Shown: positions 28,678-41,034 of the stretch, piece after piece
Layout of the letters: each line of letters opens with the position of its first letter
How positions within the stretch are numbered: the first letter of the stretch is position 1
DNA from: Clostridiales bacterium
Lineage (GTDB): Bacteria; Bacillota; Clostridia; Christensenellales; DTU072
NCBI GenBank assembly: GCA_012841525.1
Contig: DUUO01000015.1
Location: 18,924 to 82,923 of the forward strand
Direction: 5' to 3'
Length of the DNA: 64,000 bases
The notes under the pieces: generated by a model
The model's input: the letters and a program-made list of their open reading frames with translations, nothing else
Database searches by the model: none
Told to the model about the DNA's origin: nothing
Made by a program: the position numbers and the translations under genes

Positions 28678-31600
28678 TTATGGATATATCTCATTTTCTG
28701 GTATTTCTGATAGAGTGTAGCCAATAAAATCAAAGTTTCTATATTTATATAAGCCAAACTCTGAAATCGTTGCTTTTATATCGTTAAATTCCATTTTCAT
28801 AGTATAACAAGAAACATCATTATAATAAGAACCTTCTTCATTACTATAATTATAATTTACAATCCAATTATCCTGATTCCCATATTTTTCTGGCAAATAG
28901 AAAGTATATTCATTATTATCAATATAAAAATATACTAGGGTACAATAAATCTCACCTGAAGCATACTCTTCTACAAGGCCATTTGGCAACGAAGCTGCAT
29001 CTACAGTAATTTCTTCTCCTAAAGATATTTTAATAGTATATTCAACATCTGGACTTAAAGTTATTGGTATATTTTGCACCACAGAAGATTTAATAACTTC
29101 TACAATAGACAAATTGCCTTCTTCATCAACTTCTTCTTTTCTCATAACACTTTGATAACTAAATTTAATAGATGTGCTTGACAAATCAAAGGTTAATTTA
29201 TTGTTGTTATTTATAATATCTTCTAAGATAATTGTTGATTTTGCATTTTCACCTTCGCTGTCAATTTTATATTTAAAGTTAGCGTACCCAGTTTCTAGTA
29301 TATCTCTTTCAGGAGTTTTTCTAAATTCTTCTATTTCTTTAGTTGTGCCTAAAGCATCTATTTGTGTTTCTTTTGATGCTTCAATTAAGTCTTCTCCATT
29401 TACAATTAATCTGTTTTGATTAACATCATGTGTGTAATTAAATATAACATCTTTAATTATTGCTCTACCAAAAGCAAAGTGTGCCTCAAATGTATTACTC
29501 AAAGTTGATGCTATATCATTCAATAAAGGAATTCCCAAAATCTTTATATTATCTTCATATAATACTAAACTTAATCCAGTTTCAGTTTTTAATATAGTTA
29601 TTTGATAATCTTTTTGTGCTTCAAAATCGATGTTTTCACTTAATTTATCATATTTATTACCATTTTTATGATATATGCCAGGTGCATTTTCGTCATCAAC
29701 ATACAATGTATTGCTTATTACTATAGCGGAATTTGTAGCATTATTTTTAAATAACATTATTTCAAATTTTGTACGCTCTTTTTTAACTTTAAATTCAACA
29801 TCGTAGTTTTTCAAGCCATCTGGATCATCTGGGTTGGTAGGTCTGCCAATTAATGGGTTATCGTTTGATACATTTAATGAATCAAATAATTTAAATGTCA
29901 TAGACACGCTTGAAACATTTTGTTCTGATGGTTCAAATTTAAACGTTCGCCCCATATCTTCCCCAATATTTAATTCTCCATTATCGCTAGTGTCAGGATT
30001 TACAATATTAAACCTAGGAGCATTAAAGTCACTTCCAAGTAAAATTTTATTATCTGGATCATTATCTAAATAATAGTAGAGGTCTGAATTGTAATCTGGG
30101 TTAGAATTTTCTAGTTGACCGCTAGTTATTATATTATAATATTTGAGCCACCTATAAGTTAACAATTCTTGGCTATTTCCGATTGACATATCTCCATCAA
30201 AATAAAATGAATTTGCTTGTGGATTAACCTTTATAGTTCCGTTTGCATCATTAGTATAAGTGACTGAATAATCAAAGTATTTATTATCGTTTGTATTGCC
30301 AGATTGATAATAATAAGCATATGCTAAAAGTCTATCAATCAATACAAGTTCGCTACCTTCTTCCTTGTAGGCATATATTTCTAATTTGTTTGCACCAAAT
30401 TTTAAATTGAATGAAGTTAACGATTCATCACATTCTTCACCGTTTAAGTAATACTTAAGTGTAACATCTTGTGCAATTAAGTCTTTATTTATTACTTTGT
30501 CATATCCTAAGCTAGCATTTTTTACAATTGAATTAAATTCAGAAGAAAGAACTAATTTAGATCCACCAACATCATAAAATCCTTGATTCGCTAAAGACAT
30601 TCTTACAATTTTTATATCTAAATTTGCACTTAAAACACCAATACCAACGGGATCTGGATATACTGTTGTGGGCTCTATTCCTTTATTGAAGTACATTTCT
30701 GTTTCGCTATTTTCTTTGAAACTTAAATAAATTAAATTGTTTAGGCTAATTGCATTTGTTTGACTATTATCAACATCAACATATATCATCATATTTGCCT
30801 TATCATGGTAGAAATTAAATGTATGCAAATAGCCATCAAAAATAGAATGTATTACAAAAGGCATAGAATAATATATTTGTTCTATTTCAATAAAGTCACC
30901 ACCATCTTCTAATTCGTAATAAACTCTATGTTCTAGTACAAAGTCTTGGCCGTTATCCAAATAATATTTATCATACACTTTATCGTTATTGTCCATTCTA
31001 AACAATAAAACTGAATGCTTTTTCTTTCTTGTATAACCAGGGTATTTTATGCTAGGCTCATTTACATCTTTAATAAAATGACCTAACACAAAACCTAAGG
31101 CAATTGACTTTTCATTGTCTGCAATTTTTTTGGCAGAAAATGTAAAACTTAATTTATCATATATTTCCGATCTTGCTACATCATTGTCAAAATCATATGC
31201 TTCAAAATATTTATCATATAATGATGAACTATCATCTTCAAGTACATGAGTTAGTTCTCTCATTCTATAAGGAATTGAGTCTCCTAAATACTCTTTATTT
31301 TCCATATCTTGCATAGTTTGACTGGTCTTTTCCTTAAATATTAATGGCAACATTTTTTCCATAGAAAGCCTTTCAGTTGTAAATGTTTTCCTTATATATT
31401 CGGCAGGCATTGTACCATTAAACAGAAAATAATCTGGATAGTCCGTTGCTGTTTCTAAAGCATTGTCATCAAGATATTCATTACTCTTAAACTTTAGTAT
31501 AACTGGATATACTGTATTAATTGTATTAGGTGCTATGGGCTCCAATGAAAGATTAGGATATTGTTTATTCCCTAAATTGAATTTATATTCTTCTCCTATT

Positions 31601-41034: not shown

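Follow-up and report, generated by a model that had tools for sequence, protein, structure and literature searches.

What kind of surface structure is encoded by a single giant gene of 12.4 kb, how is its product held at the cell, and what does it carry at its far end? These questions are raised by a locus in contig DUUO01000015.1 of the Clostridiales bacterium assembly GCA_012841525.1, which was analyzed as a stretch of 64,000 nt (hereafter, the window; G+C content ~29%), with all coordinates counted along its full length. Giant modular surface proteins with immunoglobulin (Ig)-like repeats are common in gut Firmicutes. The Christensenellaceae-like Clostridia are heritable, health-associated, and mostly uncultured bacteria of the gut and of digesters, and to our knowledge, their surface biology is essentially unknown. 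Our analysis suggests that the giant gene probably encodes a fibrillar, adhesin-like surface lipoprotein with a mature mass of ~466 kDa and a lectin-like tip. The reading frame and the predicted anchor, the modular stalk with its orthologues, and the structural model of the C-terminal region are described in turn, and the competing explanations are weighed where the evidence bears on them.

Reading frame and predicted membrane anchor

The open reading frame (ORF) extends over positions 28678–41034 of the minus strand, comprises 4118 codons counted from a GTG without any internal stop, and exceeds every other ORF of the window by a wide margin. Since the orthologues open with MKKK... or MRKR..., the ATG at residue 6 (window position 41019) is most likely the true start, giving a product of 4113 aa. 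The mature protein is predicted to have a mass of 466.5 kDa and an isoelectric point of 4.5. In contrast, the deposited gene call P0001 (4092 aa; ENA ERZ2647830 NODE_25, 224,781 bp) starts at an internal TTG, corresponding to L27, and thereby loses the signal peptide along with most of the sequence around the lipobox. Localization predictors applied to this database entry would therefore miss the lipoprotein signal, and the P0001 start serves as a flag for a systematic annotation error by which the signal peptide is lost. The two features on which the following description relies are:

28678..41019, minus strand: likely coding sequence from ATG to stop, 4113 aa, placed by the orthologue N-termini
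40945..41019, minus strand: predicted lipoprotein signal peptide MKRKILLTITIIIFIVALSLVLFAC, then QEQ; aa 6–30, lipobox L-F-A-C

The low coverage of the source contig (~5x) and the wrong start of the deposited gene call could point to an assembly or annotation artefact, or to a decaying pseudogene. This explanation is effectively refuted by the 12.4 kb of stop-free sequence, by full-length collinear orthologues in at least seven species-level genomes from independent studies, and by the conservation of both the signal peptide and the promoter-like region upstream. Because the 8–12 orthologues that are collinear from end to end derive from independent assemblies, a frameshift or assembly artefact is excluded by sequence comparison, despite the low coverage. 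The initial annotation, made from the sequence alone, had described a single giant ORF as the largest gene of the window, and this description stands.

Translated from the GTG, the N-terminus reads VIKKKMKRKILLTITIIIFIVALSLVLFAC, followed by QEQ. The signal peptide fits a PROSITE-style lipobox pattern, with a basic n-region, a hydrophobic h-region, and [LVI][ASTVIF][GAS]C within ~35 aa, and Cys30 is predicted to be the lipidated first residue of the mature protein. This Cys does not vary in the eight-sequence family alignment (C25 of A2) and is present in 12 of 12 full-length orthologues, in which P0058, P0059, and P0062 read LSAC. The lgt gene, for prolipoprotein diacylglyceryl transferase, is located 24 kb from the giant gene (4752..5654, minus strand; PF01790, 2e-49), and lspA was not seen within the window. 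Motif scans of the giant protein detected neither an LPxTG-type motif, the mark of sortase anchoring, nor any GGxGxD, the mark of RTX repeats and the type I secretion system (T1SS). No hydrophobic run of at least 12 residues occurs in the giant protein, signal peptide included, and hence no C-terminal hydrophobic anchor was found; Pfam scans of the protein matched no SLH, CWB, or other wall-binding repeats. Since LPxTG motifs, a C-terminal hydrophobic anchor, and RTX repeats are all missing, the predicted N-terminal lipid is the sole recognizable anchor of the giant protein. The proposal of an N-terminal lipid anchor with the lipobox LFAC thus agrees with the signal sequences, which are conserved across the family. 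It is reasonable to expect that such an anchor would place the C-terminus at the distal tip of the molecule.

Modules of the stalk and their orthologues

Two families of modules appear to fill the sequence between the lipobox and the C-terminal region. The modules were cut from the family alignment and compared profile against profile with hhalign, and a separate hidden Markov model (HMM) was trained on the family. From the N-terminus onward, the stalk is composed of the following elements, for which HMM scores are given as independent E-values (iE):

37432..40929, minus strand: twelve Ig-like modules, aa 36–1201; 11 supported as Big_3 (Pfam, family HMM, hhalign), B5 unsupported
36988..37431, minus strand: module M1, aa 1202–1349; MBG-like by motif only, no hhalign link, HMM iE 0.12
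34387..36987, minus strand: nine consecutive MBG modules, aa 1350–2216; M2–M5 and M7 of the YG type, M6, M8, and M9 of the YDG/YNG type; MBG_2 at 46 bits, hhalign, HMM iE 1e-22 to 5e-7
33721..34386, minus strand: M10 region, aa 2217–2438, holding a conserved insert with the motif ENNYISFTF
33442..33720, minus strand: MBG module M11, aa 2439–2531; hhalign 94% to M5, HMM iE 1.5e-10
33010..33441, minus strand: module M12, aa 2532–2675; MBG-like by motif only, no profile support
32653..33009, minus strand: MBG module M13, aa 2676–2794; hhalign 75% to M2, HMM iE 8.7e-8
31735..32652, minus strand: modules M14–M16, aa 2795–3100; MBG-like by motif only, no profile support

In the N-terminal part, Pfam Big_3 (PF07523) is matched above threshold, at 63.6 bits against a gathering cut-off of 21.2. 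Eleven of the twelve modules within aa 36–1201 link at ≥90% hhalign probability to B1/B2, the modules that match Pfam Big_3, while module B5 (aa 400–495) shows no such link. The following part (aa 1202–3100) was delimited into 16 modules, M1–M16, by the motif K-[RK]-x-[IVL]-x-[IV], which is followed by [YF]G or Y[DN]G and ends near NxNY. Pfam MBG_2 (PF18676) exceeds its cut-off of 25 with 36 bits for the whole protein and 46 bits for a tile, whereas Pfam MBG (PF17883) is matched weakly, at 15.7–17.2 bits against a cut-off of 23.3. Further copies of the modules appear as weak matches in the Pfam scan of the giant protein, and the comparison with NCBIfam gave no match. The hhalign comparisons link M2–M5, M7, M11, and M13 (YG type) as well as M6, M8, and M9 (YDG/YNG type). 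The family-trained MBG HMM recovers ten modules at iE values of 1e-22 to 5e-7, comprising the row at aa 1350–2216 and the matches at aa 2386–2521 and 2693–2794. M1 is marginal with this HMM (aa 1217–1325), and M12 and M14–M16, which have no hhalign or family-HMM support, carry the MBG motif by eye only. The row of modules is interrupted in the M10 region by a conserved and apparently helical insert of ~130 aa (aa ~2255–2390), which ends in the family-invariant ENNYISFTF (E2378, N2379, I2382, F2384). When the PDB was searched by sequence and by profile with the region of this insert, and with an MBG stretch, the matches were at chance level only.

No tandem arrays were found in the giant gene by Tandem Repeats Finder, and the DNA-level repeats inside it are limited to chance-level direct repeats of 24–36 nt. 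The modules are therefore old, as judged at the DNA level. A word-indexed search of 5.8 billion proteins returned only eight full-length relatives (59%, 36%, ~25%, and ~23% identity), and the remaining matches have only Big_3 modules in common with the giant protein. The 2.5-k-aa proteins P0007–P0057 were rejected as whole-protein relatives, as they share Big_3 modules only and carry type-I signal peptides. The full-length family spans 3721–4118 aa at 23–61% identity and is collinear end to end, bin by bin. Because the orthologues are collinear over their whole length within this size range, module number and order are, by the evidence of the alignments, fixed and not expanding.

These results bear on several statements of the initial annotation. 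Its count of about a dozen Big_3-like modules is borne out for 11 of 12 by the profiles, and its order of Big_3 followed by MBG modules holds, with the refinement that the conserved helical insert seems to interrupt the stalk. The array of a dozen or more MBG/YDG modules is likewise seen at the level of the motif, although statistical support extends to ten of them and ~5 more are recognized by the motif only. With both Big_3 and MBG_2 above the Pfam thresholds, profile mapping upholds the Ig/MBG architecture. The view that the modules are diverged and the stalk old agrees with the scarcity of DNA-level repeats and with orthologues that remain collinear module by module.

The distribution of the family is narrow. 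In a pattern-based scan of one genome per species (185,579 species), a design that can miss distant relatives, seven species-level loci were found, all in uncultured Clostridia: a biogas-reactor "Clostridiales" metagenome-assembled genome (MAG; 59% identity), an uncultured Christensenellaceae bacterium, three Ca. Stercoripulliclostridium, a goat-colon Clostridia MAG, and a bin labelled Ruminococcus bicirculans. The same scan, within its reach for distant relatives, detected no orthologue in a genome labelled Christensenella. Since the family sits at the same chromosomal place with conserved synteny, this comparison identifies the giant gene as part of the core genome of a narrow clade, inherited vertically and neither mobile nor recently acquired.

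This constancy might also be expected of a structural envelope component, namely a fixed-length spacer or fibril layer that organizes the surface, the capsule, or flocs and has no specific external ligand. The module count and the length are strikingly constant (3721–4118 aa), the modules are one-to-one orthologous, unlike the repeats of recently expanding adhesins, and the gene shows the vertical inheritance of a core gene. We nevertheless consider a purely structural role rather improbable. The distal ~830 aa are modelled as folds typical of ligand-binding modules, and no SLH, CWB, or other wall-binding repeats were found. Moreover, the C-terminal tip is conserved yet evolves somewhat faster than the stalk, with 42–68% versus 48–84% identity to P0002.

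Predicted fold and possible role of the C-terminal region

The last 1069 aa (aa 3050–4118) have no sequence match in Pfam, NCBIfam, or the PDB, and no LamG profile reached its curated threshold in this region. A profile search of the PDB with the C-terminal region likewise gave chance-level matches only. An exhaustive HMMER search with a six-sequence C-terminal profile against 1.84 billion cluster representatives returned 19 proteins: giant orthologues and fragments of them, plus a few weak matches over part of the length. A word-indexed search with the same C-terminal alignment returned no match at all, its own members included. We take this result to reflect a limitation of the word index, and negatives of word-indexed searches with alignments of sub-sequences are not to be trusted.

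The AlphaFold2 model built with six sequences reached a predicted local distance difference test (pLDDT) score of 42, which is too poor to be used alone. With 19 sequences, aa 3280–4118 were modelled at a mean pLDDT of 57.6, with values of 65–92 over the last ~350 aa. The initial annotation had called the C-terminal region non-repetitive. This holds, and the region can now be described further, since it models with medium confidence as four β-rich domains, three of them concanavalin A (ConA)-like β-sandwiches and one a small Ig-like domain:

31156..31734, minus strand: family-specific segment with no assigned fold, aa 3101–3293; AlphaFold2 pLDDT < 40, no Pfam or PDB match
30589..31155, minus strand: predicted ConA-like/LamG-like β-sandwich 1, aa 3294–3482; pLDDT 50–69, Foldseek matches to laminin LG and others
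30310..30513, minus strand: predicted small Ig-like β-sandwich, aa 3508–3575; AlphaFold2 model, weak Cadherin-like match
29950..30306, minus strand: low-confidence, poorly conserved segment, aa 3577–3695; pLDDT 24–33, lowest family identity
29437..29949, minus strand: predicted ConA-like β-sandwich 2, aa 3696–3866; pLDDT 60–81, Foldseek matches to tandem galectin and laminin LG
28744..29409, minus strand: predicted ConA-like β-sandwich 3, aa 3876–4097; best modelled, pLDDT 65–92, Foldseek matches, invariant F4040, Y4041, P4043, and W4052

A Foldseek comparison of the 19-sequence model with the PDB retrieved almost exclusively tandem ConA-like β-sandwiches, with a probability of 1.0 and E-values of 7.5e-8 to 1e-3 for LG domains, galectins, and CBM66. 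The top matches are laminin-511 LG1–3 (7.5e-8), galectin-8 (4.3e-7), galectin-9 (5e-6), and the galectin domain of an adenovirus fibre (3e-5). These are accompanied by laminin α2 LG4–5, CBM66 (target-normalized TM-score 0.57–0.60), BoNT Hc, the V. cholerae sialidase, the lectin module of the S. sanguinis pilin PilC, SHBG, legume lectins, and GH16. The first, poorer AlphaFold2 model falls into the same fold class by Foldseek. In β-sandwich 1, the family-invariant FDGxxH...K...D (D3395, G3396, H3399, K3407, D3417) is found, and the motif FDGxxH...(I/V)DxS looks like a LamG core. Pfam Laminin_G_2 is matched below threshold in 2 of the 19 family members (best E-value 0.0036). Taken together, the model assigns a ConA-like (LamG/galectin-like) fold to the tip with medium confidence. 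P0075 and P0078, two unrelated proteins, also contain the stretch at aa ~3508–3575, there as a small β-domain in repeated copies. By hhalign, the tip sub-domains have no detectable homology to each other or to the stalk modules, and a recent internal duplication was rejected as their origin because they show no such mutual homology.

ConA-like domains can be catalytic, and a stalk-mounted enzyme of GH16-like, polysaccharide lyase (PL)-like, or sialidase-associated type was therefore considered. GH16, GH43, and sialidase structures occur among the weaker Foldseek matches (E ~1e-3 to 1e-2), and one ExDxxE string is present at aa 3909. This string, ERDILE, is the sole candidate for the GH16 ExDx(x)E catalytic motif and was rejected as such; P0002, the closest orthologue, has ERNILE at this place, and P0003 lacks the string. 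The invariant columns of the ConA-like domains include no acidic pair, and the sialidase matches are multi-domain chains that we take, unconfirmed from the alignments, to align through their lectin wings. No enzyme family of Pfam or NCBIfam was matched by the giant protein or by any of the 19 members scanned, in line with the initial annotation, which had recognized no enzymatic motif. Motif scans of the giant protein found neither HExxH nor the Ca-binding DxDxDG, and the GDSL, GxSxG, and ExDxxE strings that are present are isolated and not conserved. An enzymatic tip thus appears highly improbable. A polymorphic toxin or contact-dependent inhibition effector was also rejected, as the family members have orthologous and collinear C-termini, and the downstream genes are tRNA-Glu and uvrC.

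The arrangement that we favor, a lipid-anchored fibril with a lectin-like tip, would be built as follows. The sequence predicts export by the Sec pathway, diacylglyceryl modification of Cys30 by Lgt, and cleavage by signal peptidase II. The outer leaflet of the cytoplasmic membrane would then retain the N-terminus. From there, a stalk of fixed length, consisting of 12 Big_3 and ~15 MBG-type modules with one helical insert interrupting them, would cross the wall. Ig-like and β-grasp domains typically measure 3.5–4 nm each, and 27 modules of 3.5–4 nm would give a length of ~100 nm. The C-terminal ~830 aa, with the three ConA-like β-sandwiches and the small Ig-like domain, would be displayed at the distal tip and may bind a glycan on the surface of the host, a food particle, or a partner cell, to the extent that the medium-confidence fold is correct.

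Several points weigh against this interpretation. The tip model reaches medium confidence only, with aa 3101–3293 and 3577–3695 poorly modelled (pLDDT < 40 and 24–33, respectively), the root-mean-square deviations of the Foldseek matches are large over the multi-domain alignments, and no LamG sequence profile attains its curated threshold. ConA-like folds are also found in enzymes (GH16, PL families) and in protein-binding modules, and since these share the fold, it is no proof of lectin activity. About five stalk modules are without statistical support. In addition, expression, lipidation, surface exposure, and binding all rest on prediction, and a stalk that crosses the wall presumes an envelope type, in terms of wall thickness and any outer layer, for an uncultured lineage.

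A bolder proposal is that the family represents an adhesion organelle specific to the Christensenellales-like Clostridia of gut and digesters. A single polypeptide would form a lipid-anchored fibril of ~100 nm, and its orphan triple-lectin tip would bind surface glycans in host mucus or on partner cells such as hydrogen-consuming methanogens. Binding of this kind would account for the flocculation and the colonization of partners described for cultured Christensenella (PMC7002349). We regard this extension as speculative and unlikely. If true, the tip domains would constitute a new lectin family, with no sequence relatives beyond ~19 proteins among 1.84 billion representatives.

Genomic neighborhood and comparison with known systems

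The gene order around the giant gene is conserved. GH20 comes first, followed by a Big_3 lipoprotein of 1.2 k aa and a variable stretch; MFS_2 and the gene for a 448-aa protein then lead to the giant gene, and beyond a second variable stretch lie uvrC, HAD, and dnaE. The content between GH20 and the giant gene varies, with an FGGY kinase here and an aminotransferase plus aldolases in locus L001. In the window, the MFS_2 sugar transporter is located at 42975–44738 and the FGGY kinase at 44927–46474. Genes for the use of hexosamine- and galactose-containing glycans comprise GH20, GH123 (N-terminal domain family), a β-galactosidase small chain, galactokinase (GalK), and galactose-1-phosphate uridylyltransferase (GalT), at coordinates 50737–52347, 60396–62834, 62900–63964, 5663–6940, and 7388–8977. 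That the putative fibril is encoded in a region rich in enzymes for N-acetylgalactosamine (GalNAc), N-acetylglucosamine (GlcNAc), and galactose (Gal) glycans, together with two further Big_3/MBG surface proteins, also speaks for the adhesin-like reading.

This setting raises the alternative that the giant protein serves as a substrate-capture scaffold for glycan foraging. The tip would fish soluble or particulate GalNAc/GlcNAc/Gal glycans for GH20, the Big_3 lipoprotein, and MFS_2, acting in a monoderm cell as the functional counterpart of Sus-like surface glycan-binding proteins. The order of GH20, Big_3 lipoprotein, MFS_2, 448-aa protein, and giant gene is kept in 7 of 7 species-level loci, GH123, the β-galactosidase small chain, GalK, and GalT lie in the window, and the predicted tip fold is CBM-like or lectin-like. 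The synteny argument is weak, however, because the functionally unrelated uvrC, HAD, and dnaE are equally syntenic, and chromosomal stability within this narrow clade may be all that the order shows. Between GH20 and the giant gene, the content differs from genome to genome, and a stalk of ~100 nm is hard to square with the handover of substrates to cell-bound enzymes. A foraging scaffold is thus possible but unlikely.

Other features of the surroundings were noted as well. The 448-aa protein (41431–42777, minus strand) is encoded directly upstream of the giant gene in 7 of 7 related loci at 32–73% identity and has neither a signal peptide nor a Pfam family. Its only match, weak but covering almost the whole profile, is to the REP-associated tyrosine transposase NF047646 (E 0.002, profile positions 2–143 of 146), and the protein could be a DNA-binding protein or regulator with an HUH fold that has been domesticated. 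Between this gene and the giant gene lies a direct repeat of two copies (41299–41364 and 41382–41446; 82-bp spacing), the 51-nt core of which is 90% identical; it has no counterpart elsewhere in the window, and chance alone would give 0 such matches. A further element is located closer to the giant gene:

41150..41215, minus strand: promoter-like upstream element GTTGTATAAT ... TATATAATATTTTATATATAATATAACATTTTA, conserved with orthologous locus L003

In this element, GTTGTATAAT is followed by TATATAATATTTTATAT[A/G]TAATATAACATTTTA, and the same arrangement is near-identical in the biogas MAG at locus L003 (5880–5945), where the proteins are only 59% identical. It could be a promoter, an operator, or a leader that has been conserved. 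Consensus scans of the flanks for promoters and terminators stayed at chance level, except for a hairpin at 28514–28535 between a tRNA gene and the end of the giant gene. The tRNA-Glu(CTC) gene (28438–28512, plus strand) is convergent to the 3' end of the giant gene, and the hairpin, which is GC-poor and flanked on either side by T/A runs, could serve both genes as a terminator that works in either direction.

The two additional surface proteins of the window are a 1282-aa Big_3/MBG_2 protein (46689..50537, minus strand), with the lipobox TLSSC, which is syntenic with the giant gene in all relatives, and a 2018-aa MBG_2 protein (54088..60144, minus strand), with a type-I signal peptide, a C-terminal transmembrane anchor, and a basic tail. 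Since the lipobox-bearing and the C-terminally anchored protein coexist, both anchor polarities are present in one genome. Both paralogues share their module families with the giant protein but are much shorter; they surfaced in the homology searches through matches to the stalk region only, and the C-terminal region was not directly compared.

The tip resembles the lectin modules of the LamG, galectin, and CBM66 families (laminin LG1–5, galectins 8 and 9, PilC, BoNT Hc-N) in the fold predicted for its C-terminal β-sandwiches and in their tandem order. It shows no significant sequence similarity to these modules, and ligand-binding residues are not identifiable in it. The tip, if correctly modelled, would add a sequence-orphan branch to the ConA-like lectins.

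The wall-anchored adhesins of Gram-positive bacteria (SasG/Aap, Ebh/Embp, Mub/MucBP, and the lactobacillar MBG proteins) likewise combine a repetitive β-rich stalk with a lectin-like head, and the structure of the Aap A-domain with a B-repeat (8deo) is among the weak Foldseek matches of the tip model. Literature on the MBG domain yielded annotation tables only. In lactobacilli, MBG-domain proteins of ~2000 aa are annotated as putative mucin binders (PMC11688250). The polarity is reversed, however, as these adhesins have a C-terminal LPXTG or transmembrane anchor and an N-terminal head, whereas the giant protein would have an N-terminal lipobox and a C-terminal head.

The closest parallel in layout is found in fibrillar RTX adhesins of Gram-negative bacteria, namely those of the LapA, MpIBP, SiiE, and FrhA type. 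These are also giant, held at the cell by the N-terminus, and extended by tandem Ig-like modules, with a ligand-binding and often sugar-binding cluster near the C-terminal distal end; according to a preprint, the domains that bind ligands sit at the far end of the fibrillar extender (bioRxiv 10.1101/2025.09.30.679566). The giant protein differs in having no RTX nonapeptide repeats and no T1SS signal, and in a predicted lipid anchor instead of an outer-membrane retention module. Its extender consists of diverged Big_3 and MBG modules, in contrast to near-identical ones, and its host belongs to the Clostridia. By this analogy, the giant protein is RTX-like in layout but not a member of the RTX group, and would use the lipoprotein pathway.

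These comparisons indicate that the giant protein is a new family within an ordinary kind, the fibrillar adhesins. New here are the predicted N-terminal lipid anchor combined with a C-terminal head, the fixed stalk that is orthologous module by module, and a head of ~1070 aa nearly without relatives outside a small uncultured clade. As a fibril of ~470 kDa with a predicted lectin-like tip, encoded in the core genome, it is a concrete candidate for attachment to mucus, particles, or syntrophic partners, and would illustrate clearly how the "anchor, extender, distal binding region" design can be achieved by way of the lipoprotein pathway.

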